From assembly GCA_024743175.1 (NCBI GenBank), contig JANSXA010000001.1:521656-585655 (forward strand): a stretch of 64,000 bases of DNA, read 5' to 3'. How positions within the stretch are numbered: the first letter of the stretch is position 1; each line of letters begins with the position of its first letter. A program made the position numbers and the translations under genes. Below the pieces are notes generated by a model. The model worked only from the letters and a program-made list of their open reading frames with translations, made no database searches and had not been told where the DNA came from. The DNA comes from Pseudomonadaceae bacterium (GTDB lineage Bacteria; Pseudomonadota; Gammaproteobacteria; Pseudomonadales; Azotimanducaceae). This document shows positions 17,372 to 34,297 of the stretch, in pieces.

Positions 17372-17635
17372 ATGACCGCCAACATCCGCCCCGCTCTGCC
17401 GTCAGATAAAACCGTCTGCCTGGAACTCCTGGGTAAGCTGGTGGAGGCCACCGAAGGCGCCATCGACACACACGCTGGAGAAGTGTTTGACAGCTTGTTG
17501 GATGGATCACGAGGCCAGGTGCTGCTGGCCGAAGAATCGACCCGGGTACTTGGTCTCGCTGCGGTAAGTTTTAGCCTGGCCATGCGCTACGGTGGAGAAT
17601 ATTGCCAACTCGAAGAACTGGTGCAAACGCCCTGA
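17372..17635 (+). pseudogene. 5' part (84 codons up to the att core) of a GNAT acetyltransferase interrupted by the integrated element
   Basis: Strong AAGGAGG RBS, ATG 17372; ends ...YCQLEELV then QTP-stop in element sequence; joins in frame to 34109-34297. Confidence 0.9.
17603..17623 (+). repeat. Left att core TGCCAACTCGAAGAACTGGTG (21 bp)
   Basis: Exact copy at 34088-34108; flanking bases differ on both sides. Confidence 0.97.
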
Positions 17636-17683
17636 AACGCCCGTGCGATAGGCGTCTTGGAAGAATCTAAGCGATTACTAAGC

Positions 17684-17714
17684 AAAAAGCCCCGGTGACG
17701 AGCCGGGGCTTTTT
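17684..17714. terminator. Bidirectional intrinsic terminator AAAAAGCCCCGG-TGACGAG-CCGGGGCTTTTT closing the late operon
   Basis: 12-bp perfect stem with T-tracts on both strands, 87 bp after the last element gene. Confidence 0.9.
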
Positions 17715-17800
17715 AATTTCTAGGTGTAATTTTCCACGACGCCACTTTCTCGGCGTAGACGACACACGACAACGATAAACGCCATCAAGGTGCTGACATT

Positions 17801-18220
17801 TTAACTGATTGGGACGAGCACGTCTGCCTGATAGTTGGTCTCAGCCAAATATTCGAGCCAAGCGTCAGACTCACCAATGCGCCGCACTGACGTTGCTCTG
17901 AAGATCAGGCCATTGATAGTCGACATCTCCCAACAATCAGCCACACGGTCGCATAACTCTTGCGCCAAGCCGTCGCCCTGCCCCGCCGGTGTGAACACCT
18001 GCACGGACGCTGTACCTTGAATGCGCTTGCGTTTGCCTGCTATGGAAATGCCTATTTGCTGTGCAGCACCAGGCAGTACAGTGAGACGTACCCAGGGCAC
18101 GTTGTTGATCTGGGCAAGCTGGGTAGGCACGCCAGCGAAAACCACACGATACGTAGGCGAGAACGTCGCCCATTGATCGTTGAAGCGTGAGCGAATCTGT
18201 GAGGCAACAGCAGCGGTCAT
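17801..18220 (-). CDS. Phage tail terminator-like protein (DUF4128-like)
   Basis: PWVRLTVLPG...G...VQVFTPAGQGDG.A..L.D.VAD pattern; last gene after head closure. Confidence 0.7.
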   Translation of the reverse strand: MTAAVASQIRSRFNDQWATFSPTYRVVFAGVPTQLAQINNVPWVRLTVLPGAAQQIGISIAGKRKRIQGTASVQVFTPAGQGDGLAQELCDRVADCWEMSTINGLIFRATSVRRIGESDAWLEYLAETNYQADVLVPIS

Positions 18221-18576
18221 GAGACCAGCGTCACTTTATATGCAGCCATTTGGTCGCCGGAAACCACAAGCTGCGCATTCAGCACAGTGAAGGTCTTGCC
18301 GTCGAAAATGACCTCGTCATCGACAGCCGGTCGACTGGAAGTCTTTGCTGCAAGGTAGGTGAGCAGTTGCCCAGTCTGCACAACACCAGATAACCGGCTT
18401 TCATTGTACGGCTGTGGCGGTGAAATTTTGACGTGCTCTTCGGTCGTGGTGTTTGTGACCTTGCCGCTTGCAACATCATAAGCGCTGGTATGGCGTCGCA
18501 GGGTCGCAACCGTGCCGAACGTGTTGTCGATCAGCTTTTCGGCCAGGTCTCGAAATCGTACGTCGTATACTGTCAT
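18217..18576 (-). CDS. Phage head-closure (stopper) protein
   Basis: 119 aa; FG..ATLRR...YD..SG, P..DD.V..DGKTFTV pattern; position after the adaptor. Confidence 0.65.
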   Translation of the reverse strand: MTVYDVRFRDLAEKLIDNTFGTVATLRRHTSAYDVASGKVTNTTTEEHVKISPPQPYNESRLSGVVQTGQLLTYLAAKTSSRPAVDDEVIFDGKTFTVLNAQLVVSGDQMAAYKVTLVS

Positions 18577-18920
18577 GCGAGTTGATCCCAGTGAACATCG
18601 GTCGAGCCGTAGTCGAGTTCGTCCTTGTGGCTTCCCGAGAAAATTAAGTCATAGCGTGCCGGGCTTGCGTCGTCCCGGTTGCACTTCTCGGTCTCTGTTG
18701 GAATGTTGCCCTTGTGCACCCAATGCGTGTACAACGAGCAGGCCAGGCCCATTGAGCCGCAGCGGTGTGCGTTCCAGCATTTATCGCAGGGGCTTTCTTC
18801 AATGTACGGCTGTGCACTGGCACGGTTCCTGCGAGACTTCTCACGAACGAAGACGTTGTCTTCATAAGGCGCGAATTCCTGCTCGCCATAGGGCAGCTTA
18901 GCCACGTTCCCAAGTTCCAC
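18573..18920 (-). CDS. Hypothetical protein with Cys cluster (CxxC...C...C...H)
   Basis: PCDKCWNAHRCGSMGLACSLYTHW; overlaps both neighbours (23 nt and 4 nt). Confidence 0.55.
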   Translation of the reverse strand: MELGNVAKLPYGEQEFAPYEDNVFVREKSRRNRASAQPYIEESPCDKCWNAHRCGSMGLACSLYTHWVHKGNIPTETEKCNRDDASPARYDLIFSGSHKDELDYGSTDVHWDQLA

Positions 18921-19917
18921 GTTGAGAGGTGAGCAGAATCTCTACTTCCCGGGATGCATCAAAGAAAAACTTTTCGCGCTGGGCGTTGAAGTATTCGACT
19001 TCAAGCTCACCCAATTTCTCGCGCTTGGTGGAGCGGTCAAGCACACCCACAAGCTGCGACGCGGAAAGCCCGTCATCGGCGATAGCGGCACGCGCCAGGA
19101 AGATTTGTGCACGCTTCAAAGCCTCGGGAATCTCTGTCGTTGTGTAATAAACAAGGTTTTTGTTTTTGCTGCTCACACCAAGCGGCAACAGTGAGCCGTC
19201 AGGGAAATCGACATAGTCGCGAATCGCTGCCCATTCCCTCGGCCACTCCATGCACTGCCTGGGCTCTACCTTTGAGCCTATCCAGCGCATGCGGTACTTC
19301 TGTGACAGGTAATCCACTGCGTACAACAGCGCTGCATCCAGCACAGCGGTCGACACGCGCGGGCTTGCTGTGAATATTGAGTCGTTTCGGTTCTCCCAGA
19401 ACGTGCGCATCTCTTGCAGCGACACGTATGAGTTCGGGCATGGGCTGGCGTTTGAGTTGGTGCCGTCATTGACTACGATCACGTTGCTTACCTCCAAGTC
19501 TTCGATGGGTGACGGTAGCGGGCTTACAGGAGACCCTACCGGGCTAATTGGGCTCGGCCAGGGTGAGTAGTCCAGCGTTGGGGAAGCCAGCGGCGACACA
19601 GGAGACGGTAGCGGGCTGATTGGGCTCGGAGCAGGGCTCAGCGGCGACGGTGCCGGTGATATCGGACTCGGCATTGGCGATATACGCTGCGGGCTGGGCA
19701 GCGGGCTGATTGGCGATGCAACCGGGCTGATTGGTGAAGGTAGGGGCGAACTCCTTTGCGGACTGGGTCTGGGTGATCCAAGGGGCGAAGGCTGCGGGCT
19801 GATTGGCGAAGGTACGGGGCTCGTGTTGTACGGTGACGCAACCGGTGACGCAGGGGTTGCCCCGAACGCACCGATCTGCTCGTCGAAACCTGAACCATAT
19901 GCACCGATATTCGCCAT
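18898..19917 (-). CDS. Head-tail adaptor (so-called DnaT-like ssDNA-binding family) with an N-terminal Ser-Pro heptad stalk
   Basis: C-terminal NSYVSL.E...F, A.DYL, Q.MEWPR, IPE.LK.AQ..LA, KREKLGELEVEY motifs; about 30 SP dipeptides in residues 24-137. Confidence 0.8.
   Translation of the reverse strand: MANIGAYGSGFDEQIGAFGATPASPVASPYNTSPVPSPISPQPSPLGSPRPSPQRSSPLPSPISPVASPISPLPSPQRISPMPSPISPAPSPLSPAPSPISPLPSPVSPLASPTLDYSPWPSPISPVGSPVSPLPSPIEDLEVSNVIVVNDGTNSNASPCPNSYVSLQEMRTFWENRNDSIFTASPRVSTAVLDAALLYAVDYLSQKYRMRWIGSKVEPRQCMEWPREWAAIRDYVDFPDGSLLPLGVSSKNKNLVYYTTTEIPEALKRAQIFLARAAIADDGLSASQLVGVLDRSTKREKLGELEVEYFNAQREKFFFDASREVEILLTSQRGTWERG
19507..19848 (-). repeat. Protein-level SP-x-SP-x-P heptad repeat region (114 codons)
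   Basis: SPISPQP, SPISPVA, SPISPLP, SPISPAP, SPLSPAP, SPISPLP, SPVSPLA, SPISPVG, SPVSPLP; the DNA copies are diverged. Confidence 0.95.
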
Positions 19918-19920
19918 TGC

Positions 19921-21090
19921 TTAAGCCCTCAGTGCTGCGGCCATTGCAGGGAATCCGCCTACCGGTACTGCTTGGTCTGCGAAACCCCCGGCAGCGGAAA
20001 CAGAAAGATCGCCTTCGGTGTACGGGCTGCTGCCGCCGTCAATGTACTGCGGGTCTGCGGTGATATCGTCGACGAAGTCGTAAGGCGTACCAGCAGGTGA
20101 CACGTTGAGGGGTGAGCCAGTTACCCGCGGGGCTACGCCGCCGAGCGTATTGGTCTCGTTCAGCGGGTTGAATGCGCAGCGGATAGCCATAAGAGGGCGA
20201 CCGCTCGGTTCCCTACTGCCGTTCACGCCGTACCCGCCGTTGTTGGTAGCTACACAGTGCAGCATGATTCCGTTGTTCAGCGAGGCATCGCCGGGGACCA
20301 TATCGAAACCGTCCGTCGCATTACCGTGTGCGGTGCAGTTGATTAGGCGCGAATGAAGCGGTCCTGAGTTGTTGGACTGTTCCGCGAACCCTGCGCGACC
20401 GTTGTATGCCGAAACGCAACCGATCAAAGAAATATGGGCGTCGTTGCCGGTGATACGAAAGCCGTCGCCTGTCCCTTCTGGGGAGATACTAGCCGTGCCA
20501 TTTTCAAGCGCGACCGAGTTAATGCAGGTGTCGCCCGGTTGGAGATTAAACCCGATGTCGATGCACTTCTCAGCACGACAGCCGATATAGGTGTTGTAAG
20601 AAAGAGTTGACGGGACGCTATCGAAGCCGGTTCCCCAGCCATAAGCACCGCAGTTCACGAATACACTGTACTGTGCCCCGACTAAATCGAAACCAGCTTC
20701 GGCATTATCGCCTTGCTCGAAAATAGTGACGACATTTTGCACAAACCAGTAGTCGCCATTGAACTCTAGACCGGTAGCACTCGGGCCAACGTCGGGGGAA
20801 GCCGTTTTTCGAAAGGTAATAACACCGCCGTCGCCCACGACGGAGCCGTAGCCGATTAGCTTGCAGAAGCCTTCGCCGGGTGTGCCGCGACCGCTAATTG
20901 TCCATTGACTGCCGCCTTGCGGCGAAATGTCGAGCGAGTTCATAGAGTAGTCGCCGTCTGCATTGGTGGCGTAGACGGTGTCTGCATTGAACGTGGTGTT
21001 TCTAATCAGTTGGTGTAGCGCGATTGCGTTCGCTTCTGAAGAGCCGTCGCCTAAACCCTTTGATGCTGGTGCGGCATAATATGTAGCCAT
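19921..21090 (-). CDS. Right-handed parallel beta-helix (pectin-lyase-like) protein
   Basis: N-terminal YY..P...G.GDGSS.ANA motif; Cys/Asn ladder repeats GCVSAYNGRAGF, NCTAHGNATDGF, HCVATNNGGYGV; C-terminal DPQYID; GGAG RBS. Confidence 0.8.
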   Translation of the reverse strand: MATYYAAPASKGLGDGSSEANAIALHQLIRNTTFNADTVYATNADGDYSMNSLDISPQGGSQWTISGRGTPGEGFCKLIGYGSVVGDGGVITFRKTASPDVGPSATGLEFNGDYWFVQNVVTIFEQGDNAEAGFDLVGAQYSVFVNCGAYGWGTGFDSVPSTLSYNTYIGCRAEKCIDIGFNLQPGDTCINSVALENGTASISPEGTGDGFRITGNDAHISLIGCVSAYNGRAGFAEQSNNSGPLHSRLINCTAHGNATDGFDMVPGDASLNNGIMLHCVATNNGGYGVNGSREPSGRPLMAIRCAFNPLNETNTLGGVAPRVTGSPLNVSPAGTPYDFVDDITADPQYIDGGSSPYTEGDLSVSAAGGFADQAVPVGGFPAMAAALRA

Positions 21091-21113
21091 GTGTCTACTC
21101 CTTTGTTATGGAG

Positions 21114-21140
21114 AAAAAAGAAGGGGCTCCGAAGAGCCCC
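21114..21140 (-). terminator. Intrinsic terminator GGGGCTC-TTCG-GAGCCCC-TTCTTTTTT after the major capsid gene
   Basis: 7-bp GC stem, UUCG tetraloop and U-tract read directly. Confidence 0.9.
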
Positions 21141-21151
21141 AAACCCCATAC

Positions 21152-22183
21152 TTAGAGAGACTGTATTGCTACAGCGCCCGTGTTTTTCAGTTGAAGCACA
21201 CGGTCCCAGTTGGTGCCTGTGCCGAGCACAGTGTCAGTCGGGTTAATGCCGCCGTTAGCGAGGTCATAGGAGTAACCCATCAAGCCAACATCGAATGCAC
21301 CAGTCGTGTTCTGGATAGAAAACTGAACGTTGTCATTCCCATGCACGGTCTGAAAATCAATATCGAAGGCTTCGCTTTCGGTAATGGTCACAGCGCCAGG
21401 CTTCAAGCCGAGCGTTACATACTCGCTCAATTCGCCGGGGCTGGAAGTGTTAACCAGTGCAGCGGAGTCGCTAACGATCACAGGAATGCCGAGCGTTTCG
21501 GGTCGGCCAGTCTGGACGTTGAAAGAACTCAAGCCGTCGATGTTTGCGGTGATCTGGGACTTAACCAAATCGAACCACACTTTCGAGTGCATCACCCAAC
21601 AAGCAACTTGTGACGCTTGGTCACCAAATTGTGCAAGCGTATCAACCAAGTCGTTAGACGTGATTGTGCGTTGCGGGGATACCGCGCCGCCGATGTCGAT
21701 GTTGAGAGAAGCCTGATTCATGGTTGCTGCAACCAAGGCAGTCAGCGCACGGTCGAGCTTGTAGATCGCTCGGTCTTTGGCGATCTCTTCAGCAAGCAGT
21801 GCAGTAACGTCTGCGGGCACGGTCCCAAAAGTTTTAGCCAGTGCGTCAAAGCTATCTTCGACATACAAAGACTCGTTCAACTTCACAGAGATGATTTCCG
21901 AGCGATTCAGCCGCGTAGGTGTGATCGGCTGGTTACCCGGTGAGGCAGAACCTACCTGTCGACGGGAAATTAAGCCGCCGTGATTGATAAACTGTGCAGA
22001 TGCCGCGTAGTCCCCGGGGTGAATGCTGCTGGTTAAAACCATCCCGCCGTTGCTTGCGGCGTTGAATGCGTTTGAAACCTGCGGGGTCAGTTCGGTGATT
22101 GCAGTTGATAAAAGGTCTGGGTACAGCAAGCCGGAAACCGACAAGTGACCAGTTGAACGAAAGTTTTGTGAGCCTGAACTCAT
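21152..22183 (-). CDS. Major capsid protein (siphovirus Gp13-like type)
   Basis: AFNAASNGG.VL...GD, AKFGD-like AQFGD, LGIPVIVSD and GL.GYSYD.ANGG.NPTD..L.TG.NWD motifs resemble this capsid family as recalled. Confidence 0.85.
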   Translation of the reverse strand: MSSGSQNFRSTGHLSVSGLLYPDLLSTAITELTPQVSNAFNAASNGGMVLTSSIHPGDYAASAQFINHGGLISRRQVGSASPGNQPITPTRLNRSEIISVKLNESLYVEDSFDALAKTFGTVPADVTALLAEEIAKDRAIYKLDRALTALVAATMNQASLNIDIGGAVSPQRTITSNDLVDTLAQFGDQASQVACWVMHSKVWFDLVKSQITANIDGLSSFNVQTGRPETLGIPVIVSDSAALVNTSSPGELSEYVTLGLKPGAVTITESEAFDIDFQTVHGNDNVQFSIQNTTGAFDVGLMGYSYDLANGGINPTDTVLGTGTNWDRVLQLKNTGAVAIQSL

Positions 22184-22297
22184 AACGTGATACTCCGTAT
22201 TTGAAAGTTAATTGCTAACCTTCCCGAGCATCGCGCCGTGCACAGGTCGACTGTGCGGAATGGGAAAGCCTGTATTTTCATACAGTGAGAAAAAATG

Positions 22298-23698
22298 TCA
22301 AGGGTTATTTTCCTCGTCGAAGACTGACTGCCCACCTGCGACCGGGTTTTCGATCTCAGCGAGCGACAGCTCTTCTATTACATCAAGGTCGTCGGGTAAT
22401 AAGTTCCGACGCTTGGCTTCGCGCAACAGTGATGCCCGGGTCAACGCACCAATAGCGTTCAATTCGAGCAAATCTCTCATTTCTGAATCGGCCAGGGCCA
22501 GGGACGCAAAATCTTCGAAAACGTCAACTTGCGCGTCGTCCTGGGGCAAAGCTGTGCCGAGCATGTCGCCAGCGATACGCAGTGCCGCTTCAAGTGCTTG
22601 TTTCAGTTCCCGGGATAACGGGCGCAGGTCGAGCGAGCTTTCGACGTCATCGAGCGCCCTTGCGGTTGCTGTGGCGTTACCCGGACGTCTACCCATTGTC
22701 AGATTCAGGGAGGATGTAGCAATGTGCTGCTCAAGCGCTTCCAGCTCAGTACGTCCAGCCCCTACCCCTTTACCGCTATGCTCGAGGAAAGCAAGCGTGT
22801 CGCCAGCATCCAGCACGGTTAATTGATTAGGTCCAGTCACAATCTGCTTGAACTCGCTTTCACTCTCGCCCGACTCAGTAGTGCGGGTTAGTGTTAATGC
22901 GGGTGCGCGGACTGCGTGCGTTATGTTCTGCTGCTCACTGTTGCTGACCCAGTGCTCAACGTTTAGATGAGCCAGGTCTTCAAGTAGCGGTCTACCACCC
23001 GCAAAGCCAACACCGCGGAACTGGGCACTCACTAAAGGCACGTAATCGAAACCGGTGTCGACATCTTCAATCAACTCAGGTTCGTCGCTGCCTTCCATCT
23101 CTTCATAGATGCGCAGCCGGTTCGGTTCATAAACCCAATACTGACATTTCTTTTTTGTCTCGAAATCGTCGCGCTCGGTCACGTCGAACTGAATCACGGC
23201 GAAGTTATAGACCTCAATGCCGTCGACAATCTGAGTATCCCAATCAAGCAGCTTGCTCGGGTGTATCAGCTTCCAGTAAGGAATTGCTGCCTGCTCGTCT
23301 GCAAGCGTCTCAGCTTCGATGCGCTCCCGGTCTACCAAGATATGCGCAACGCCATAATCGACACCTTGCGTGCACAGGTCACGTGAGAACGCTGCCAGGT
23401 CGTCGCCGGTTCCGGTGACATTGCCTGCAAACTCAATCATGCGGGCGGGGACTTTGTCAGTCGGTGCCGGGGCTCGGGTTAAGAGCTTACCGACAACACG
23501 GTCAGCAGCCTTGCTGTAGAAATTGGTCAGCGTCGCACGCCGTAGCCGCCGGGAATATCCTTCAGCAGATTCGTGCGGGTTTGGTGGTAGGTACTGCTCA
23601 GCGGCGGCACGCATAGCGACAGTGCCGCCGCGCAAGTCATCTGACATCTTCCATAAGGGGGCGAACATTTTGTTCTGCTGGTTCGGTTCAATTTTCAT
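22298..23698 (-). CDS. Phage portal protein (DUF4055 type)
   Basis: GG..AMR.AAE.YLP..P.ES...Y..RL.RA...N, PLLEDLAHLNVEHW..NS.Q.NI.H motifs; ATG 23698 one base after the upstream stop. Confidence 0.88.
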   Translation of the reverse strand: MKIEPNQQNKMFAPLWKMSDDLRGGTVAMRAAAEQYLPPNPHESAEGYSRRLRRATLTNFYSKAADRVVGKLLTRAPAPTDKVPARMIEFAGNVTGTGDDLAAFSRDLCTQGVDYGVAHILVDRERIEAETLADEQAAIPYWKLIHPSKLLDWDTQIVDGIEVYNFAVIQFDVTERDDFETKKKCQYWVYEPNRLRIYEEMEGSDEPELIEDVDTGFDYVPLVSAQFRGVGFAGGRPLLEDLAHLNVEHWVSNSEQQNITHAVRAPALTLTRTTESGESESEFKQIVTGPNQLTVLDAGDTLAFLEHSGKGVGAGRTELEALEQHIATSSLNLTMGRRPGNATATARALDDVESSLDLRPLSRELKQALEAALRIAGDMLGTALPQDDAQVDVFEDFASLALADSEMRDLLELNAIGALTRASLLREAKRRNLLPDDLDVIEELSLAEIENPVAGGQSVFDEENNP

Positions 23699-23699
23699 G

Positions 23700-24293
23700 C
23701 TATGCAGCCTCACTGATTATGCGAATCGCTTCGCGCATTGTTTTACCTTTCCCGATCAGCTCTTTAATTTTCGCTTGCCGTTCCTCGGGTGTTTGGGGTG
23801 CGGTATCGCGCACTTCGGGCTTGCTGGTTTTGCGCGGAGCACCACCACCACCGCCGGGAGACTTGGCATTGAATAACGTGCCGTGATCGCCCGCTTCTTT
23901 GATGCTGTTTAGAGCATCGACGAGGGACAGCGGATGCTCCGCGTCATCGCGTAGAATCTTGCCGTTATCACCTTTCAGCACGTACTCGCCGTCTTCTGTC
24001 TTGGTGATGCGGTCAGCGAAGAACGAACGTGCGTACCGGTTACCACCCGCCGCTTCGAGTGCATCGCGCAAGGCAATGTCTTGCTGTAGGCGAGAGACCT
24101 CTTCGGGCTTGGCTGTGTTCTTCAGCTCTTCACGCAAAGCTTTCACAGTCGAGTGCACCTTTTCCGCACGTTGCTCGCCATAATTGAAAGCCTCTTCATG
24201 AACGAAAAAGTCTTCATCCTTGGGCTGCACGTACTGGGCTTGTTCCTCTTCGGACAGCTCATTAAATTCGTCGGGGTTCAGTTTAATTTTCAC
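23700..24293 (-). CDS. Capsid scaffolding protein (putative)
   Basis: Acidic N-terminus, coiled coil, LF.....GGGG followed by a short C-terminal helix. Confidence 0.65.
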   Translation of the reverse strand: MKIKLNPDEFNELSEEEQAQYVQPKDEDFFVHEEAFNYGEQRAEKVHSTVKALREELKNTAKPEEVSRLQQDIALRDALEAAGGNRYARSFFADRITKTEDGEYVLKGDNGKILRDDAEHPLSLVDALNSIKEAGDHGTLFNAKSPGGGGGAPRKTSKPEVRDTAPQTPEERQAKIKELIGKGKTMREAIRIISEAA

Positions 24294-24861
24294 TTGGGAA
24301 GTTTCCTCTTTCCGTTTGCATAAGTTTCAGCAGCGACTCGTGTGCGCCAATTTGTTGATTGACACGGAAGGCGTTGTCTCGATCTTTGTAGGGGGTCAGC
24401 GTTTCTCGGTAAACGTTCAGCAGGTCGTCAGAAACGCCGGTAATCTCTCGGGGCGTGTGCAGCAAAGCCAGCCCGACGGATTTGTGCGCGTCTGGGTTTG
24501 CGAGCAAGTCCATCTTCCCCGCAGCGGAACTGATCAGGTCTCGGTAGCGTTGCAGCAGCTCACCGCGGTCGAAGTCGGAGATCGGCGGCAACTCTTCACG
24601 TTGCAGATGTTCAGAACTGCGCAGGTTACCGAGTCGTTTTTCAACCGCGGCAATGTCTTCGTCGAGCATAGAGCCAATCTCAATGCCTGCTTCATTAAGC
24701 TGTTTCGCAACGCCCTCTTCGGTAAGGTCGGCATCCTCGGTCAACACAGCGCGCAAGTCGCTGTGTACGTCTAACCGGGTCGTGAGCGTCTGGTACGCTG
24801 GGGTTAAGAATTCATCGTCTGCGAACATGTGCTCGTAAACGATTCGCTGTGCGTTTTTCAT
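24283..24861 (-). CDS. Hypothetical acidic helical protein in the head module
   Basis: 192-aa ORF overlapping both terL and the scaffold gene (translational coupling). Confidence 0.65.
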   Translation of the reverse strand: MKNAQRIVYEHMFADDEFLTPAYQTLTTRLDVHSDLRAVLTEDADLTEEGVAKQLNEAGIEIGSMLDEDIAAVEKRLGNLRSSEHLQREELPPISDFDRGELLQRYRDLISSAAGKMDLLANPDAHKSVGLALLHTPREITGVSDDLLNVYRETLTPYKDRDNAFRVNQQIGAHESLLKLMQTERGNFPSEN

Positions 24862-26258
24862 AAAGCAAATTCCCTTGATCGTCGTTTGACGGGTTTAAAG
24901 TTAACTAGGTAACGGATTCCATCTATCGAATGGTCCGGACCGACTAAATCTTCTCGTCGGGTCTTGTGGTGCTCGACAGTCAATGTCGTATCACGCGCAT
25001 AGTCGCAGTTGGCGGTGTAGTAAAGTGCAGCGCCAGTCGCTTCAGGATTGTTACAGTTGGCAAACCGCTGTCGCATCATTGCCCAGCCGTGCGCCCGGTC
25101 TTGTTTTTGTGACTTACGCAGACTGACGCCGTTAGCGCGAAGTATCGCGCCGGGGCTATCGACGCCCAGGTCGGCAAACGCTGCACTATCAAGCACGCCG
25201 TGTGGTTGTCCGGGTAGCCCCCAATGACGCCACATAGACGTAACATGCTCGGCCACTTTAGCGGCTGGCATTTGGGAGCCCTTGTCTAAATCTTCCGGTA
25301 CAGCGGTATGAAATTCGTCAAAGACCACACTGTCGTTTTCCTTGAAGAACTGGTCTTCATGCATCGTGGGCCGCGTGAAAGTCGCCACCAAAGAAAACGC
25401 AGCCGGTGACGCACTACCCCAGTCCGCACCAATTTCGATCTTTACGTTATTCGGTAATTTCGACCAAGGCTTCAGAACGCAGCGGTCTTCTTCGAACGAC
25501 GATCCAAAGAAAGCACCTACCCGAATATCCCACGCACCGAACTCAAAAGCGTCGGCAAGCTCCGGGTCATCTTTGCGAATCTGGGCAAGCGAAGCACGGT
25601 ACTGATCGTAAATAATAGGGTTGTCTTTCGGGGTAGACGGGTTAAACAACCAAAGCCGCTTGGTGTCTGGGTCGCGGTACTTGACCGGGGGCAAGTTGGG
25701 GAACTCTTTAACAAATCGAGAACGTACGGCGCTGTGACCGATGCCGCCCGGGTTTGCAGTAACAATAAGTCTAAGGGGCACGTGTGCGGGACCAGACAAC
25801 GACGTCGCGATGCGGTCGAACAAAGTAAGGTTCGGCCATTGCTGAATTTCCTCGCACCAGATTAGGGTAAAGCCCGCGCCTTGCACCTTTGTCCATGTAT
25901 CCGCCGTCTCGAACTGCTCCCAACGGACGACAGCGCCATTCTTGAAGCGCGTGCGGCGTTCCTGCTTGTTGTGGGTGAAGGCGTCGGGACCGAGCATCGT
26001 GCGCCAGGTGTCGAAACACTCTTCTTGTAGGGTTGCGATTTCAGACCAGTGACGCCGGTAGATAAGGACATGTGAATCTGGGCCGTAATCAGCGATGTGA
26101 TGACCAGTGATGCCTGCGGAGACCTTAGTTTTCCCGCCCCGGCGACCACCTCCGCTAAAGAGCCCTGTACCGAGACCCGTTTCGTCACGCTCTTCAAACG
26201 TGAGCGCCCGCGCCTGGGGCTCGTTCCATTCGATATGTCCGCGCGTTTCACTCGACAT
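24858..26258 (-). CDS. terL: Terminase large subunit
   Basis: Walker A GGGRRGGKT, Walker B LIWCEE, motif III VTANPGG, nuclease motifs IGADWG and DHSIDGIRY. Confidence 0.93.
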   Translation of the reverse strand: MSSETRGHIEWNEPQARALTFEERDETGLGTGLFSGGGRRGGKTKVSAGITGHHIADYGPDSHVLIYRRHWSEIATLQEECFDTWRTMLGPDAFTHNKQERRTRFKNGAVVRWEQFETADTWTKVQGAGFTLIWCEEIQQWPNLTLFDRIATSLSGPAHVPLRLIVTANPGGIGHSAVRSRFVKEFPNLPPVKYRDPDTKRLWLFNPSTPKDNPIIYDQYRASLAQIRKDDPELADAFEFGAWDIRVGAFFGSSFEEDRCVLKPWSKLPNNVKIEIGADWGSASPAAFSLVATFTRPTMHEDQFFKENDSVVFDEFHTAVPEDLDKGSQMPAAKVAEHVTSMWRHWGLPGQPHGVLDSAAFADLGVDSPGAILRANGVSLRKSQKQDRAHGWAMMRQRFANCNNPEATGAALYYTANCDYARDTTLTVEHHKTRREDLVGPDHSIDGIRYLVNFKPVKRRSREFAL

Positions 26259-26922
26259 CGGTGATGTCCTCGGCAGTCAGGTCGATGACCTTCTCGTCTG
26301 GGGCTTGGGGTTTGGCTATCTGGGGCAGATTGAACGTGTACTCGTGTTTGATGGTGGACTCGTTGCCCTTCTGCAAGATTTCCGGATCGAAAGCCTTAGC
26401 CACGAACTCGGCAGCGCGTGTGTCGCCTTCCATTGCCTTTGTGATCTGGGCAGTAGCAATCTGCTTGATGACGTCGCCGCGTCCGGCTTCAAGTGCCGCC
26501 GCTATGGGCGGGTGCTTCTTGACCCACTTATTGAGCGTAGTCAGTTCGATACCCAGCTCTCGGGCAATGTATTTCATTGAGGGTTGCGCCGCGGCCAGTA
26601 GGCGTAAGCGCTGAAGCCCGTCGGCAGTAAGGGTCTGCACCTCGTTTGCGGCTTTGGGGAGCCACCCGCGGGCCTCTGCTTCGGCACACGCCTCACCCAG
26701 CGCTGTTTGCACTGTGGGCGCGTATATTGCTTCGACTGCGAGCTTCACCCGCAAGGATTTCTTGCGCCATGTGCGCCACGTAGAGGCAGCGACACCAGTG
26801 TGCCGGGTGAGTTCTTGTATGTTGGTGACGTGTTTAGGTCGCTCCTTGATCATTTTAAGGAGCGCACTTTCAGTATGTGCGACGGGCATCGGTCTTATTA
26901 CGGCAGCATCGTGCTGGAACAA
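26248..26922 (-). CDS. Terminase small subunit-like protein with two HTH motifs
   Basis: IQELTRHTGVAASTWRTW and MKYIARELGIELTTLNKW HTHs, then A.EGD..AA.F; overlaps the terL start. Confidence 0.7.
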   Translation of the reverse strand: MFQHDAAVIRPMPVAHTESALLKMIKERPKHVTNIQELTRHTGVAASTWRTWRKKSLRVKLAVEAIYAPTVQTALGEACAEAEARGWLPKAANEVQTLTADGLQRLRLLAAAQPSMKYIARELGIELTTLNKWVKKHPPIAAALEAGRGDVIKQIATAQITKAMEGDTRAAEFVAKAFDPEILQKGNESTIKHEYTFNLPQIAKPQAPDEKVIDLTAEDITDVE

Positions 26923-27081
26923 AGAACTGTATAGATGTCCAGCAAAATAGGGAAGATACCTTGTTTTACAACGACTTACAGCGACTTACTGGGACAACTA
27001 AGGGTGTGCGGTATGCTGGCAAAGGCTGGTAGCACCCGGGATAATGATCCCCGTCACCAGCCAGCCAGCCGATGACAAACG

Positions 27082-27174
27082 AAAAGCCCCGAGAGGTTTC
27101 TCCTTGCCTCCCGGGGCTTTTTTGTGGGCGTATAGAAAGAAGCCCCGGCAAAACCCTCATTGAGCCGGGGCTTC
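27082..27174. terminator. Two tandem GC-rich hairpins (27082-27123 bidirectional terminator-like; 27139-27174) between the early and late operons
   Basis: AAAAGCCCCG...CGGGGCTTTT and GAAGCCCCGG...CCGGGGCTTC. Confidence 0.7.
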
Positions 27175-27479
27175 CCAGTGCTCTTGGCGGGGAGCACTGT
27201 GTTGTGGCGATGGAAAGTCCCACTACAGAAAACCATCACCGCGAAGCCATGATACCGAACGCCTGCACGGTGAACACAAAAGCCTATTCACTATTTCGTC
27301 TATTTCGTAAAACGAAAAATAATTTCGCCTGTATCAACCCCTTTTGCTTAGGCACTGCTTAGATTTATTCATAAACCCTATTGCAGCGGGCATTTCTACC
27401 AGTTCAATCGACTGGTGAGCGATGAATCGAGCCCACGGGGAGCGTGAGACAACCTAACCCGCTACTCCCCCCAAAGTAA

Positions 27480-27680
27480 GAAAAACCATAATTCCAGAAT
27501 TCCAGAGTAATTTAGGGGGTCTCTATATATATATGTGTAAATCAGGGGCAAAAGTAGGGTGAAAACAGTCAAAAAGAGAGAGTCTTAGTAAAATATAGAT
27601 ACATACATACATTACTCTGTAATAACTGTTTATCCCTACAAAAACCCTTGTAAATCAATAACTTATAATTCCAGAAGACT
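27480..27680. promoter_or_regulatory. Putative replication origin of the element
   Basis: AATTCCAG at 27490, 27498 and 27667; inverted CAGAGTAAT (27503)/ATTACTCTG (27611) around an AT-rich core with a (TA)n run; exact IHF consensus AATCAATAACTTA at 27653-27665; directly downstream of the primase-helicase. Confidence 0.6.
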
Positions 27681-27688
27681 TTTCGGGT

Positions 27689-30343
27689 TTATTCTGTACT
27701 TGTCTGGTTTATCCACTCCGGGTTGATCTCAAAACGGGGTGTTTTCTTCCCGCGCTTCGAAATTACAGAAGATTCCCGAATAATCCCGAAAGAATTCAGC
27801 GTCCGAAATATGGAATAAATGTCCTTATCCGTGTGCCCGGTATGTTTACCGAACACCTTCATAACGCTCGTCACGTCGCTCAACGTAAAGTAGCCTAGCT
27901 CTTCGTATCTTTTGCTCCTACCACAGCGTTTCAGCACCTCTGCTAGCTTCTTAGCGTCCTGAACCTGCACGACACGCAAGTCCAGCAGTGCCGACATGTG
28001 CTGCTGATACCGCTCCGCCATACGTATGCATGTCTCTACAGCACGCAGCGACACGGGCCTTGTTTGAAGCCACTCCCGCCCCTCGGAATCTGTTTTACGC
28101 TCAAGCTTGGATAACCCGGCAAGCTCGTCTGCGCCTTGGTTCAGCAGCGCGTGTACACCGCACAGCATGAGCACGTGTCGCCCGTTCTTAGCGTGTATGC
28201 CGCGCTGCACAGGGTCGAGTTCCCGATCCCTGGCTATGCGTTGCTGATCCCAGTTGTACCGCGCGAAGCGCCTGTCTGCTTCGTCGTCGAACGTCACGAC
28301 AAGGTCTCCGTCTAACTGCCGACACTGAAAGAGTACGGCGCGAAGAGCCTTATTCCACGCGCCCTCTGTTTCCTCAAGCCTTTTTTGCCAAAGCCGCTCT
28401 TCTTGATAGACCGCGTCGAAGTCGGTCTCGTCGATGTGTTGATTGTGCGTAAATCCGTCTGGGACGACGATATTCAAGAAACGGAAAATCCACCCATTCT
28501 CTAGGTCAGCACCTTCAATGGTCTTGCTGATACTTTCCGGGGTTGATACACCACCAACCGGGCAATACCCGCGGTCTGCGTTCATGTGAATAATGTCGTT
28601 CGGGTCGATGCCTGCACGAATCTTGCTGTAAGGGTCGTTTGACCATGCAGAAAGGTAGTATTCGGCGTCTGCACCTTTGCCATTTGCGCGATACTGCCCG
28701 AACTGCTTAACGAAGCTGGACATTTCGTCAGACATGTAGCCCATGCCGTTAGGGTTTTGCGATAGTTGCTTGATGCGAGCCTCAATGGTGGCGTCTTTGT
28801 CGTAGACGACTTCTCGTATAGGTCGCGGTCCGCGCTCTTCGGCCTCTTCGCCGCCCATCTGCCCAGCCTCCTCCCACTCACGCAGCCTCTTCTCGTGGGT
28901 GCGTTGTCGCTCCCTTTGGAACTCTACTATAGGCTTGGTCACGCGCCCCCATGAGCCGGTTTTCTGGAAGCCTGGGGGCATGATTATCTGCACCCACGGG
29001 CTCGGTGTTTGCTCAAAGTCGTGTAGTGCCTTGACGGTCGTGCGTGCGCCAGCGGCGAGACCGACGGCGAATATCATCATCGAGCAGACCGCTTCCACGG
29101 GCTGATTAGATAGATGCGCTATCGCTTCGCAGTACCGGTACTGATCAACCGACAGGAATTCCTTTGCTGGGAATGTCAGCGCCTCGACTTGCTCTTCGTC
29201 GTCAATGGTCAACGGATTGAAGGGCTCCGGGGGCTCCTGTCTGTGGGTATCGTCGGGACGTTCCCAGCCTTGTTCTTCAGCATGCTTGAATATTGAGTCA
29301 ACGCGGTAGCAAGGTCCGTTTTGCTGCTCGTAAAGGATCGTGCCTTCAACGCTTCGTGCGTCGTGCCATATCTCCTTGATCTTTTCGGTGCCGTCATACT
29401 TGCGCGCTTTGGTCTTGTGCAGACCACCAGCAGACCACTTGTCGGCCAGGTCAAACAGGGCTTGGGCGTGCTCTTCATGCTCACACGCATGTCGTGACAG
29501 CGCCATGATTGCCTTGCCCCAGGAGAACGGTGCCTTTGTGTCCCAGTAGGGTGCGTCTGGGTCACAGTGGGATAGCGCGGCGGTCAGTTCATCCATTGCA
29601 AGGGGCATGGGTTGCCATTCGTCACGTATGTACTCAGGCACGCGGGTGTGGTCGGTCTTGCCGTTGAACTTTGGTAGTTCTGTCGGCTTGGGCACGTGTG
29701 TAGACAGCGGCTCTGAGTGCGGCCAGTCAACCGCACCGAACTCGACAAGTTCATAGTCAGCGTCCAGCAAACCGCCTTCACCACCCCCGGGCACGGCGAC
29801 CGGCTGCGAGCATACGGGGTTTGGGAATATCTCTAACTCTTGATCGGCGACACCTTTCTGCCCTTCTTTAAAGTCTATTTCTTCGCATATGCCGCGCAAT
29901 GCCTTGCGGACGTGACCAAAGTACGTCGGCTGCTCCCATCTGGCATACAAGTGAATGCCTTTGCCGCCCTTCGACTTGAACGCAATGAGATGCACGCCAT
30001 GCTGCTTTGCAGTCGCGGTGATTTTTTTCGCTGCGTCTACCATTTGCGCCCAGGTTGTTGCGCCGTCGTGATCATCAAGATCGAACTGCGCAATCTGCAC
30101 CATCGGTTGCCAGTTTTCGGGTCTCTCCGCCCGGGGTTTCATGCGTATGATTTCGTCGCACAGGTAGAACGACACGGGTTTGCCTTTGCTCACCAGTTCG
30201 GTGAACAACCTGCTCTTAAGTAAGCCGGACTCGCAGGACTGCTTGCCGGGCTTGCCTTTGTTTTTGGTGCGGTGCAGGAACGTCGTGTCGGTGCCTACGT
30301 AGGGGTGAATGTACTGACTGAAAAAGTTGAGTCTGGGTGTCAT
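27689..30343 (-). CDS. Primase-helicase fusion (AEP-like primase + PriCT-2-like + DUF3987/YfjI-like ATPase)
   Basis: FDLDDHD and KSKGGKGIHLY primase motifs; L..ALSHCDPD..Y...W...IMAL; PPGFQKT P-loop; MSDEMSSF; NGWIFRF. Confidence 0.8.
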   Translation of the reverse strand: MTPRLNFFSQYIHPYVGTDTTFLHRTKNKGKPGKQSCESGLLKSRLFTELVSKGKPVSFYLCDEIIRMKPRAERPENWQPMVQIAQFDLDDHDGATTWAQMVDAAKKITATAKQHGVHLIAFKSKGGKGIHLYARWEQPTYFGHVRKALRGICEEIDFKEGQKGVADQELEIFPNPVCSQPVAVPGGGEGGLLDADYELVEFGAVDWPHSEPLSTHVPKPTELPKFNGKTDHTRVPEYIRDEWQPMPLAMDELTAALSHCDPDAPYWDTKAPFSWGKAIMALSRHACEHEEHAQALFDLADKWSAGGLHKTKARKYDGTEKIKEIWHDARSVEGTILYEQQNGPCYRVDSIFKHAEEQGWERPDDTHRQEPPEPFNPLTIDDEEQVEALTFPAKEFLSVDQYRYCEAIAHLSNQPVEAVCSMMIFAVGLAAGARTTVKALHDFEQTPSPWVQIIMPPGFQKTGSWGRVTKPIVEFQRERQRTHEKRLREWEEAGQMGGEEAEERGPRPIREVVYDKDATIEARIKQLSQNPNGMGYMSDEMSSFVKQFGQYRANGKGADAEYYLSAWSNDPYSKIRAGIDPNDIIHMNADRGYCPVGGVSTPESISKTIEGADLENGWIFRFLNIVVPDGFTHNQHIDETDFDAVYQEERLWQKRLEETEGAWNKALRAVLFQCRQLDGDLVVTFDDEADRRFARYNWDQQRIARDRELDPVQRGIHAKNGRHVLMLCGVHALLNQGADELAGLSKLERKTDSEGREWLQTRPVSLRAVETCIRMAERYQQHMSALLDLRVVQVQDAKKLAEVLKRCGRSKRYEELGYFTLSDVTSVMKVFGKHTGHTDKDIYSIFRTLNSFGIIRESSVISKRGKKTPRFEINPEWINQTSTE

Positions 30344-30464
30344 TTTTTGTCTGCCTTTTATCTTAAAGGCAGACCTCGGGGGCGGGGCGGTGAAGAGGGG
30401 AACACCTAGCCGGGCACTACTCGCCCGGCTTACTTTCTGTGCGCCTTCGGCCTGCGGGAAGGGG

Positions 30465-31478
30465 TTACTTGTTACTTATGTGATGCGGGTTGCTCTTGAT
30501 CGACTGCTCGCATAGGCGTTCGATGTGTTGCTGTCGCCTGTCCATGCAGTCGCTCGGTATCAGGTAGGCCAGACGTGACAGCCATTCCTCCTGCGTCAGC
30601 GGCTCCAACACAATCGCACGTCGCTCGAACGCCTCGCGGCGCACCGTCTCGTAATCGTAGAACTGCGCACGCATCTCGGCTTCGAATGTGAGCCACCGGT
30701 CGGCTCGCTCTAAGTGGTTGAGCGTGTCTATATCCTCGCCCTTGTTCCACAAATTTCCAGCGCAATTAGTGCCGAACACAAGCGGCTCTTCGTAACGCGA
30801 GCCCGGCACTGTGATCTCGAACCAGTAGCCCGGTATTGAATCCAGTTGGCTAATTTTTGAGACGTGCCCGGTTCGATTCTCGGGGTTATGGTCTACCAAT
30901 TCGTCAGCAAGTGGATTGATTGGTTTGTGCCGGTCTACCAACACATCCTCGGCAATGCCACGGGCGAAAAAATTTAGCTCGTGATTGATTCGGTCGAGAA
31001 TGAGTTGCTCGGGGTCGTCACTCGTAGGTCCGCGCTCTTTGCCTGGGTTTTCCATCCGCCGCAAGTGCTGCTTGAGTCGCAGCCCGAGTGCGTCGAGCTT
31101 GGCTTCCCACTCGGGCTGCGTCATGTCATCCAAAACGACGCCGCTTGCTTCGAAGAACTTTTGCTTCACGTGCGCGTAGTCGAGCATCTTGCCGCACGCT
31201 TGGTCCCAGTCGCGCAGCAGTTCGTTGAACTTGGCGTCGAAAGGCCCGTGTTCAGAGTTACGCAAGTCATCGACTAGCTGGTCTTCGTTGTAGTCGTGTT
31301 CGGGGTCGTTGGCTATGCATGCACGCATATGCCCCGCCACTTTGAGCGCGTAGTCTCTGTCTTCGTGGATAAGCGCAACTTCGTCGACGGCGAAACTCAC
31401 TTGGTCGCCGTTATCGGTAATCAAGTGAAAGCCGATCTCTGTGTCGTATCTGTTCATTGTAGTTATAGCGTTAGTCAT
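30465..31478 (-). CDS. Hypothetical protein with an internal two-fold repeat
   Basis: DYAHVKQKFFEASGVVLDDMTQPEWEAKL vs DYETVRREAFERRAIVLEPLTQEEWLSRL. Confidence 0.75.
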   Translation of the reverse strand: MTNAITTMNRYDTEIGFHLITDNGDQVSFAVDEVALIHEDRDYALKVAGHMRACIANDPEHDYNEDQLVDDLRNSEHGPFDAKFNELLRDWDQACGKMLDYAHVKQKFFEASGVVLDDMTQPEWEAKLDALGLRLKQHLRRMENPGKERGPTSDDPEQLILDRINHELNFFARGIAEDVLVDRHKPINPLADELVDHNPENRTGHVSKISQLDSIPGYWFEITVPGSRYEEPLVFGTNCAGNLWNKGEDIDTLNHLERADRWLTFEAEMRAQFYDYETVRREAFERRAIVLEPLTQEEWLSRLAYLIPSDCMDRRQQHIERLCEQSIKSNPHHISNK

Positions 31479-31785
31479 CTTGTTTTCCTTCTTTTCTATT
31501 AGGTAATTCTTTCACCCACCCAGGCACGCCGGGTAACGGTGATCCTGCGAGCTTTGCTTCGCGCCGTTCTGAATTGGTCATCTCTTTGATCCACTGCCTT
31601 GCTGTGTAGCCATTTCCATGCAGCCACGTCAGCGCCTCGTCTAAGTGAAAATTCCGCAGCAATGGCAGCGTTGCCCTGCTTAGTGCGTTCGGCCAGACCT
31701 TCATGTCTGGATCATTGAGCGATTGCTCGAACTCACCCGGCTGTGCAGGTTTGAAAATCTCGTCGAATTTATCTTTGTCAATCAT
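31471..31785 (-). CDS. Hypothetical protein
   Basis: 104-aa ORF with 8-nt overlaps to both neighbours. Confidence 0.65.
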   Translation of the reverse strand: MIDKDKFDEIFKPAQPGEFEQSLNDPDMKVWPNALSRATLPLLRNFHLDEALTWLHGNGYTARQWIKEMTNSERREAKLAGSPLPGVPGWVKELPNRKEGKQDD

Positions 31786-32074
31786 TTACGTATTCCTTTT
31801 CTGCTTCTTCTAACTTTTTGATTAAGGCACGGGCTATCTCAGCCGCTACGCCGTCTACAATTTTTATGCGTTGTGCTTCAGCTTCCCGGCGCAATTGCCG
31901 CTCGCGCTTGAGCGCACCCTTCAGCTTGTCGACCTCTTTGCCGGACGACCAACCTTCCAGCACAAGCGCTTCTAGTCGCATGACATCGTCGCCGAAATGT
32001 GTTGTATAGGGCTGATAGCCTGGGGGTTCAGGGTCCAGCTTTTCGAACTCGTCTAAGGGTATTTCTGGCTTCAT
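31778..32074 (-). CDS. Hypothetical coiled-coil protein
   Basis: 98-aa ORF in a coupled chain of overlapping ORFs; LKRERQLRREAEAQR coiled coil. Confidence 0.65.
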   Translation of the reverse strand: MKPEIPLDEFEKLDPEPPGYQPYTTHFGDDVMRLEALVLEGWSSGKEVDKLKGALKRERQLRREAEAQRIKIVDGVAAEIARALIKKLEEAEKEYVND

Positions 32075-32421
32075 GCGTCACCTGCCTTAAGCCGTTCGAC
32101 TTCTTCAGCACTGAGCATGAAGTAGTCAGGCATACCCAGCGGCACGACGGACTGACGAGCGGCTTCCGTGCCGTGCTGTTCAGCGATCAAGTCGTGATAG
32201 AACCGGGTCATTAAGGGGAGGATTACGAAGCTGCGCCCGCGATCACCTCGGGTGCCGGGCACCTTCAGAATACGATCTTTGTGCAGTTCGTTGAAGTAAG
32301 TGAGACTGGTGTTTTGCTCACCAGTTAAAGGCGACTGGTTCGCCTCTTTTACGGGTGCAAGAGGCACCCAGCCGTAATACAACGTTTCCATATTGCGCGT
32401 ACCAAACAGTCTCCCGCACAC
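32071..32421 (-). CDS. Hypothetical protein, first gene of the early operon (possible excisionase/regulator; alternative ATG 32391)
   Basis: ATGA overlap with the next ORF; function inferred from position only. Confidence 0.55.
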   Translation of the reverse strand: MCGRLFGTRNMETLYYGWVPLAPVKEANQSPLTGEQNTSLTYFNELHKDRILKVPGTRGDRGRSFVILPLMTRFYHDLIAEQHGTEAARQSVVPLGMPDYFMLSAEEVERLKAGDA

Positions 32422-32654
32422 CGCTCACAGGGGATTAATTGGTCTCAGTACGTGCTTTATGCTTTCCGGGTGGAGTGTCGCAATCGGTCGGATTTTAACC
32501 GCCGTGCCGCTTGAAGCGCCAGAAAGGCTCTCGCCTAGACTTTTCTAACCTCGGCGGCGTCCGTGCGGTATCCGTTGGGGGGTCGAATCGGAATTTCTAG
32601 AATCGACGTCGGCGCCAGCCAGGCCAGGTCAATGGAAATGCCAATGACCTGGCT

Positions 32655-32683
32655 ATCCTACGACGACGAATAGCGCTTTACAA
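32655..32683 (-). promoter_or_regulatory. Putative sigma70 early promoter TTGTAA-N17-TAGGAT followed by the hairpin GCCAGGTCATTGG-N5-CCATTGACCTGGC
   Basis: Read directly; the spacer is exactly 17 nt. Confidence 0.5.
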
Positions 32684-32729
32684 GAATTTTTTCTTTTAAG
32701 AACAGAAGGATACGGCGCAAAGCTCGACA

Positions 32730-32747
32730 ACTTGACATATGTCAAGT
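32730..32747. promoter_or_regulatory. Perfect 18-bp palindrome ACTTGACATATGTCAAGT overlapping the integrase stop codon
   Basis: Self-complementary by direct check. Confidence 0.7.
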
Positions 32748-33989
32748 CTGCTCGAAGAGTTTCGCTAAATGGTTGTTATATTTCTGCAATGCGTCCGCTC
32801 GCACATCTAGGTCAGGCGGCTTGCGACTGTAGTGCGCGGTGATGCTGCCCTTTTTCTTATGGTTTAGCAGCCAGGCAATAACAAGCTCGTTGTAACCCAG
32901 TTGATCATACAGCGTTGCGCCCATCGTGTGCCGCCATCGGTGCTGGGGATTGTGTCGATAGAAGTCCGGCAACGGCTCCTTGTGGTTCAACAGCGAAAGT
33001 GAGTAACGCACGTTCCTAGGCACCTCGGAACCTTGCAGCGCCACGCGAAAAACCTTGTCACTATCGCCAGCTACGCACTTCGCATCATCCAGAATGCAGC
33101 GCATTTGCGATGTAATAGGTAGCCGGTGCACCTTGCCGTTTTTGGTGGTTGCACTCGGCAGTACAACAGTATCGGATTCGACCATCGACCAAGTTAGTTT
33201 CGATGTTTCCGTACGTCTGCACCCAGTATATGCAAGCCACAACGTGAACAACCGGTCACCTTCGGGTAAGCCCTGCGGCCACCACCTGCATAGCGCATCG
33301 CCAAGCCACTTTAGCTGCTCGTCCGTGTATGGTTTTTCGTAGGGCGACAGTTCGTCCTCGTCCTCTTTTTCTGGCGGTAATAGTCTTTTTGTAAGAATGT
33401 GCGTTGGTGGTTGGTAGGTTTTGTCGTGCGACTCAACGTACCGCAGTATCGTTCGCAGGTATCGAAACGTATCTCGCGCCTGCTTGGGCGTGCCAATCAT
33501 GCCTTTCTGACCTTTAATCTCGCCGCGTTTGATTTGATTGAAACGTCTCTCAACATCCTTTGTTGAAATCTCCCGGTACGGACGTTCAAACCAGTCGCCG
33601 AGATAACGCTTTAGTTGGTCCGGCACTTGCCCTGCGGTCGCCGCCTTCAAATCGCGTGACTGCATCCAATCAAGCATGACTTGCCGTAGCGTTTGTCCGC
33701 CTCGCTTTTGCGTCCAAGGGTCTTTGTTGTCACCGAGTTCTGACAGCCAGCGAATAGCCACCTTGCGGGCAGACTTCACGTCGGGTTGCTTGATGACCTT
33801 GCGGAAGGTCGAGCCGTTCGCACGTCTACCAGACAGCACAAACGATTTCCGTCCGCTCTCGTGTAGTTCCAACCCAAAACCTGCCGGGTCTGTGAACCAT
33901 TGGAAATTCGACAGCTCCGGGTCGTACTTGGCGGCGTCGACATTTTTCTGTGTTGGCTTTACTCGTGCGCGCGTTTTAGGTGCCTTCAT
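32742..33989 (-). CDS. int: Tyrosine integrase with N-terminal arm-DNA-binding domain (ORF extends to 34028)
   Basis: Arm domain GFGLE...SGRKSFV; catalytic residues in YTGCRRTE (R), TKNGK (K), HRWRHT (HxxR), LLNH (H) and TAHY (Y). Confidence 0.93.
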   Translation of the reverse strand: MKAPKTRARVKPTQKNVDAAKYDPELSNFQWFTDPAGFGLELHESGRKSFVLSGRRANGSTFRKVIKQPDVKSARKVAIRWLSELGDNKDPWTQKRGGQTLRQVMLDWMQSRDLKAATAGQVPDQLKRYLGDWFERPYREISTKDVERRFNQIKRGEIKGQKGMIGTPKQARDTFRYLRTILRYVESHDKTYQPPTHILTKRLLPPEKEDEDELSPYEKPYTDEQLKWLGDALCRWWPQGLPEGDRLFTLWLAYTGCRRTETSKLTWSMVESDTVVLPSATTKNGKVHRLPITSQMRCILDDAKCVAGDSDKVFRVALQGSEVPRNVRYSLSLLNHKEPLPDFYRHNPQHRWRHTMGATLYDQLGYNELVIAWLLNHKKKGSITAHYSRKPPDLDVRADALQKYNNHLAKLFEQT

Positions 33990-34087
33990 CTTGCTTATTT
34001 CGTGCTTAGAATCTAAGCAAAATAGCACATTACAGGGTATTACAACACCAGCAGAAGGCGCTATAACACGGTACTACGTCACACGAG

Positions 34088-34108
34088 TGCCAACTCGAAG
34101 AACTGGTG
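34088..34108 (+). repeat. Right att core TGCCAACTCGAAGAACTGGTG
   Basis: Identical to 17603-17623. Confidence 0.97.
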
Positions 34109-34297
34109 GTTGATCCCGCTGCGCGTGGCAAAAACGTCGGCGGTCTGCTGCTAGAAGCGACTCTCAAACTCGCGCGAGAACGAGGCTGTGCGGAATATGG
34201 CTTGTATCTCGTCGCGACTACGGAGAAAAATCTGCCGTTTTACCAGAAGTATGGCTTTGAACGTGTTGGCAGCGAGCTGCGCCAACGCCTGGTCTGA
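34088..34297 (+). pseudogene. 3' part of the interrupted GNAT acetyltransferase
   Basis: CQLEELVVDPAARGKNVG (GNAT motif A) and N...FYQKYGF (motif B); an in-frame TAA at 34064 shows no replacement 5' end. Confidence 0.9.

Follow-up and report, generated by a model that had tools for sequence, protein, structure and literature searches.

The closest described counterparts of the locus reported here are prophages that undergo active lysogeny, namely the comK prophage (phi10403S) of Listeria monocytogenes and the Sa3int phages found in hlb of Staphylococcus aureus, which are prevalent in their host lineages and excise in a condition-dependent manner (PMC7397523, PMC6597384, PMC12607152). The stretch analysed, referred to throughout as the window, comprises 64,000 nucleotides of contig JANSXA010000001.1 (positions 521,656 to 585,655; assembly GCA_024743175.1, Pseudomonadaceae bacterium), in which a phage-related element of 16.5 kb splits a gene for a GNAT acetyltransferase. 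As with the comK and Sa3int phages, the integrase inserts inside a protein-coding gene, neither half of the gene is replaced by the insert, and precise excision restores the open reading frame (ORF). The comK and Sa3int phages are, however, complete tailed prophages whose excision has been shown experimentally, whereas the element in the window has no recognised tail genes, comes from one sample and was not seen in an excised form.

SpyCIM1 in mutL of Streptococcus pyogenes, and skin in sigK and SPbeta in spsM of Bacillus subtilis, are gene-splitting islands whose target genes are restored by excision; they show conservation within their lineages, with excision coupled to growth phase or sporulation. 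The element in the window resembles them in being a small or defective phage-related island that splits a gene, and SpyCIM1 is itself satellite-like, but neither lineage conservation nor coupling to growth phase or sporulation is seen for it. A further point of comparison is offered by the phage-inducible chromosomal islands that form capsids (cf-PICIs), defined in SatelliteFinder by int, pri-rep, terS, terL, portal, capsid, adaptor and connector genes, together with AlpA/MerR/Stl regulators, a prohead protease and HNH (PMC10085698).

Taken together, the observations make it likely that the window holds a recent and, in principle, reversible insertional inactivation of an accessory gene by a satellite-like element, in other words a plain insertion. 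A capsid-encoding, apparently tail-less element would have recombined with a 21-bp site in the chromosome, inside a 146-aa GNAT gene located between prfB and recJ, by means of the P4-type tyrosine integrase that it encodes. The crossover would have doubled the 21-bp core and produced an 87-aa stump together with a promoterless 3' piece that holds the whole acetyl-CoA-binding half; exact restoration of the gene would follow from conservative site-specific excision. Such excision would most likely occur only on induction by a helper phage and with departure of the element, rather than under the control of the host. Intragenic integration with restoration on excision is already well known, and the case offers no new mechanism by itself.

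The core, TGCCAACTCGAAGAACTGGTG, is an exact direct repeat that occurs twice in the window and twice in the whole 4.72-Mb assembly, in both cases at the two ends of the element (attL and attR; Table 1). In a repeat search of the window it is the sole exact direct repeat of at least 15 nt that brackets the element, and the chance of an exact 21-mer pair in 64 kb is estimated here at about 5e-4. The element-specific DNA between the cores amounts to 16,464 bp. Joining the flanks (17372–17623 and 34109–34297) with one core kept gives 441 nt in a single frame, which encodes the 146-aa protein proposed in an earlier note on this DNA. The rebuilt protein matches Pfam Acetyltransf_1 (PF00583; 5.7e-13, 49.6 bits against a gathering cut-off of 20.7), and Acetyltransf_7 and Acetyltransf_10 are also matched above their gathering scores.

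The gene is interrupted after V84, and motif A (R90-G91-K92-N93-V94-G95, Q/RxxGxG/A pattern) lies wholly in the 3' piece, in agreement with the earlier proposal that the cut falls just before the acetyl-CoA-binding motif. At the left junction the frame reads ...EELV-QTP-TGA, with the stop at 17633–17635 closing a stump of 84 native residues plus QTP, and it was correctly stated that the element brings no replacement 3' half. That it brings no 5' half either holds in so far as an in-frame TAA (34064–34066) closes the frame upstream of the attR core and no ATG is present; the statement that the 3' piece has no start codon is not exact. An in-frame GTG at 34106, within the attR core, opens a 63-aa ORF (34106–34297) that spans the whole C-terminal GNAT half. 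No convincing Shine-Dalgarno sequence precedes this GTG, and the 63-aa product would be without strands β1–β4, the N-terminal half of the fold. Judged from the sequence, the strain that carries the element is null for the acetyltransferase, and for annotation the two GNAT pieces are better treated as a single interrupted gene.

The empty site is present in contigs of five other public runs (X3–X7), in which position 17602 is joined to 34088, with 16,485 bp skipped and 21 letters common to both sides. The strains in X3–X6 show 1–3 differences from the window in 2.5 kb of flank, and that in X7 is about 3% divergent; X4–X6 belong to one algae-metagenome study and X7 to another, and runs X8, X9 and X14, in which coverage was too low to call the site, are outside this count. 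The only differences of X3–X6 within the gene, at 17389 (CGC>CGG) and 34180 (GAA>GAG), are both synonymous and in third position, so that the rebuilt protein is the protein of these sister strains. Precise excision would thus restore a gene that near-identical strains carry whole and would yield exactly their protein, and the empty site upholds the structural part of the earlier note, an att-flanked insertion rebuilt by excision.

An intact gene, for which the earlier note proposed a search in related genomes, is also found at the same locus in related species. The two closest homologues having long contigs, on a JGI metagenome contig and on CP121329.1, a complete chromosome of a metagenome-assembled genome (MAG), lie in the order lysS-prfB-GNAT-recJ-hom-dsbC-xerD-rplS, matching the flanks in the window, and loci L013 and L014, like CP121329.1, have an intact 146-aa gene in a lysS-prfB-GNAT-recJ-hom-dsbC-xerD context. 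Homologues of the rebuilt protein number 851; among the 120 listed, a length of 146 aa prevails, and the best are 93, 90, 90 and 87% identical to it. The dN/dS ratio is 0.07 against the 93%-identical relative and 0.09 against a 90%-identical one, with similar values for both halves of the gene, which points to purifying selection where the gene is intact. The suggestion that the gene might be degraded in element-free strains is contradicted by these data.

Element DNA was found, among public-run contigs, only in the two runs of the source sample (S1). The species-level lineage occurs in six samples, with the element in one and the empty site in five runs, and the insertion appears to be recent and rare in the population. 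The source genome was assembled from a metagenome in 18 contigs, and foreign DNA misjoined or misbinned at a short repeat might in principle mimic such an insertion. Against this, two separately assembled source contigs (66.7 and 79.7 kb), one from each run, span 16500–35500 with zero differences and an even depth of 34–35x, equal to that of the flanks. With 21 bp, the repeat falls short of the 31-letter words that underlie the contig index of the runs and would not be expected to create a false join, and the junctions have the anatomy of site-specific recombination, including the position of the integrase gene next to attR. An artefact is therefore hardly credible, and the occupied and empty alleles of one strain lineage, both in public data, form a clean natural example of before and after.

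The choice of site is best approached through the codons that the core occupies, CQLEELV, which fall in the invariant block of the family, RYGGEYCQLEEL. The core is identical at 21 of 21 positions in relatives that are 90–93% identical in the GNAT protein, although neighbouring synonymous sites differ, and has 4–8 mismatches in other species of the genus. A stretch of 21 bp is too short to separate conservation of the DNA from constraint on the protein. Because the core coincides with the invariant codons, it may be inferred that the integrase exploits a strongly conserved, recurring sequence and not the role of the enzyme, as tRNA-targeting integrases do. The integrase shares with P4-type tRNA-targeting integrases the combination of Arm-DNA-bind_3 and Phage_integrase domains and the use of a conserved host sequence as attB, but it differs from them in hitting the middle of a protein gene and in not regenerating its target.

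All catalytic residues of the integrase can be read from the sequence: R (AYTGCRRTE), K (TTKNGK), HxxR (HRWRH), H (LLNH) and Y (AHY); among solved structures, none was near enough to the integrase to check these residues by alignment. Itself aside, nothing above 27% identity was found among 5.8 billion proteins, a scan of genome contigs showed no integrase relatives, and the 21-bp core has no match in IMG/VR. The only contigs holding the integrase are those of the source sample, in the integrated state. A short sequence, AGAATCTAAGC, occurs inside each end of the element, and its 10-nt core, GAATCTAAGC, has two copies only in the window; the pair are candidate sites for the arm-binding domain of the integrase. 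Between the GNAT stop and the end of the minus-strand recJ gene lie 11 bp, and recJ is directed towards the start of the integrase gene, 280 bp beyond (34028–34309). No terminator-like site was found between recJ and int, and it is possible that host read-through from recJ could reach int.

The earlier note had offered two readings of the site, a switch for the acetyltransferase or just a dispensable target, and the evidence leans towards the latter. In a regulated switch, or active lysogeny, reversible excision under stress, helper infection or a given growth phase would restore the enzyme, the element then re-integrating or staying episomal. Such a system would fit a gene under strong purifying selection that is interrupted and, in silico, precisely restored by excision, with neither half replaced, an intact integrase, perfect att cores and possible transcription into int from the host. 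The distribution of the element and of the gene argues otherwise. The element lacks the prevalence at its site that marks the known switches, which are prevalent or fixed in their host lineages: it is confined to one of six samples, five runs have the site empty, and no second split GNAT gene was found in 40 other genomes of the GTDB genus, in 400 genomes spread over the order or among the best 80 loci of GTDB. An orthologue is present, and uninterrupted every time, in 20 of the 40 genus genomes; since it is missing from the other 20, the gene is accessory, and half of the genus can dispense with it. Neither the source runs nor the JGI metagenomes yielded an attB or attP contig, a weak point since contigs drop rare variants, and no excisionase was recognised. 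A switch is thus unlikely.

Several observations weigh against the plain insertion by a mobile element that is favoured here. No attB or attP junctions were found in contigs of the source runs X1 and X2 (SRR18498042) or of X12, in which rare variants would be dropped, the attP junction (the core with both element ends) has no match among the metagenome contigs of JGI, and the activity of the element is therefore inferred. The RNA data of runs X13 and X15–X17 yielded nothing of use for this gene. Pfam, PHROGs and HTH_17 identify neither an excisionase nor a regulator among the element ORFs. In so young an insertion, intact gene halves carry no information for or against a maintained switch. It is conceivable, too, that the insertion into this gene has a selective reason.

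In this last respect, occupancy might itself be functional, either because loss of the acetyltransferase aids the element, if the enzyme impedes phage or satellite development, or because excision triggered by a helper re-activates the enzyme within the response to infection. This is quite improbable; if true, in either form, it would represent the first gene switch carried by a satellite in a free-living marine bacterium. NCBIfam gives the GNAT protein no substrate class, all equivalogs scoring far below their cut-offs, and its best match in the PDB is the uncharacterised N-acetyltransferase 3fb3 (6e-11). A role as the toxin of a toxin-antitoxin pair was considered and rejected: the neighbours are only prfB and recJ, with no adjacent antitoxin gene.

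Among the 400 genomes of the order, the GNAT family is almost confined to the host genus, and only the genome of the window shows two partial matches. A scan of GTDB with one genome per species, in which the best 80 loci, ranked ahead of 62 weaker ones, were examined, gave full-length genes in all 80, in marine Pseudomonadales (labelled Ca. Azotimanducaceae, SAR86 and Cellvibrionales), Rhodospirillaceae and a few Myxococcota. The 146-aa family is patchy in these loci (L048–L127), at 52–72% identity, yet nearly absent from the rest of the order of the host. This pattern suggests horizontal spread of the GNAT gene itself.

The element carries 18 ORFs, tightly packed, co-oriented and uninterrupted, with every recognised gene on the minus strand. 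The order of transcription is int, four unmatched ORFs, a prim-pol/DUF3987 gene, small and large terminase, scaffold, portal, major capsid protein, β-helix protein, adaptor, head-closure and tail-terminator-like genes (Table 1). Pfam and PHROGs revealed no tail tube, tape-measure, baseplate, holin or endolysin in the element, HTH_17 has no match in it, and the unmatched ORFs have no defence-system matches; any excisionase or regulator would have to be among the four ORFs that follow int. Because head and neck genes are present without recognised tail or lysis genes, the element is best described as capsid-forming and satellite-like. The GC-rich hairpin located 60 bp from attL, after the neck genes, is read as a bidirectional terminator that would stop the truncated GNAT transcript as well as the late operon of the element. 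Within the adaptor gene, at 19514–19834, there are four diverged copies with a period of 90–93 nt that form a Ser/Pro-rich stretch (repeat family D1).

Table 1. Positions of the split gene, the attachment sites and the element genes in the window
Feature	Coordinates	Strand	Remarks
prfB (main frame), conserved left neighbour	16082..16963	-	
GNAT 5' part	17372..17635	+	84 native codons, then Q-T-P and TGA from the element; strong Shine-Dalgarno AAGGAGG before ATG
attL core	17603..17623	.	encodes C78-Q-L-E-E-L-V84
Element-specific DNA	17624..34087	-	absent from empty-site contigs
AGAATCTAAGC, candidate arm-type integrase site	17662..17672	+	39 bp from core
GC-rich hairpin with A-run/T-run flanks	17684..17714	.	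dG -21 to -23 kcal/mol on either strand
Tail-terminator / neck-like protein, 139 aa	17801..18220	-	PF13554 9.4e-8, phrog_179 1.2e-20
Head-closure Hc1-like protein, 119 aa	18217..18576	-	phrog_161 3.6e-12
Head-tail adaptor Ad1-like protein, 339 aa	18898..19917	-	phrog_477 2.1e-26, PF20557
β-helix protein, 389 aa	19921..21090	-	PF13229 8.5e-6
Major capsid protein, Gp13-like	21152..22183	-	PF20036 4e-67, phrog_247
Portal protein	22298..23713	-	phrog_145 2.2e-87
Scaffolding protein	23700..24293	-	phrog_206 4.9e-10
Large terminase	24858..26258	-	phrog_2 8e-20
Small terminase (HTH)	26248..26922	-	phrog_309 6.4e-12
Prim-pol and DUF3987 helicase-type replication protein, 884 aa	27689..30343	-	PF13148 7.4e-30, PF21686
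Four ORFs (337, 104, 98 and 116 aa)	30465..32421	-	no family match
P4-type tyrosine integrase	32742..34028	-	PF00589 (Phage_integrase) and PF13356 (Arm-DNA-bind_3); start 60 bp from attR
AGAATCTAAGC, second copy	34008..34018	+	70 bp from core
attR core	34088..34108	.	second copy of the 21-bp core
GNAT 3' part	34109..34297	+	residues 85-146, motifs A and B; without promoter or ATG
recJ, conserved right neighbour	34309..36012	-	transcribed towards the integrase gene

Set against the cf-PICIs, the element has the integrase, primase-replicase, small and large terminase, portal, capsid, head-tail adaptor and connector, and is of about 16 kb. It gave no tube, tape-measure, baseplate or holin match, and its last gene matches a tail-terminator family. 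It differs in that no AlpA/MerR/Stl regulator, prohead protease or HNH was found with Pfam and PHROGs, a scaffold standing in place of the protease, and in its capsid, which is of the Gp13-like type and does not match the HK97 Phage_capsid family. Identity of its proteins to those in IMG/VR reaches about 35% at most (the portal at most 35%), the loci of portal relatives there have no GNAT match, and it resides in an uncultured marine bacterium of the Pseudomonadales. Going by its genes, the element may work like a cf-PICI; it is not filed as a member because core components are missing and its proteins are remote from known ones. This divergent, marine, capsid-forming satellite is a more interesting object than the split of the GNAT gene.

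The same gene content might instead be that of a decayed tailed prophage that has lost its tail and lysis genes, is immobile and has inactivated the acetyltransferase permanently. Besides these genes, a repressor and an excisionase are among those not recognised, and the element turned up in no more than one sample and not as attP, as would be expected of a remnant. Its ORFs are, however, packed and uninterrupted, its end after the neck genes is clean, with a terminator close to a perfect att core, and the element-free sister strains imply a very recent arrival. A second element in the same genome, which has the same architecture up to the capsid and is nearly equal in size, argues further for a designed small genome over random decay. 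Such a remnant is accordingly improbable.

The sister element (contig C1, 87435–103450) has 15,962 bp between perfect 54-bp repeats and sits at the 3' end of tRNA-Thr(CGT), which it regenerates. Its gene order is int, an AlpA-like gene, primase, small terminase, large terminase, scaffold, portal and capsid, the capsid being 48% and the portal 36% identical to those in the window. The capsid gene is followed by a Pycsar pair (PycC 6.3e-88, PycTM 1.3e-49) and DUF4238, with no recognisable neck genes, and the integrase matched Phage_integrase only. These features would show that regeneration of a tRNA target is the usual strategy of the family, with the GNAT insertion as an unusual case. One satellite-like element thus has its att site in those codons of a protein gene that are most conserved, and its sister uses a tRNA gene, a situation useful for studying how integrases choose conserved targets.

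Both capsid-only elements would depend on tails from elsewhere, and two loci of the genome are candidates for resident tailed prophages able to supply them. Matches to the tape-measure family PF10145 lie in long open frames at C18:192787–193098 and C7:281900–282244, each less than about 30 kb from an HTH_17 match.

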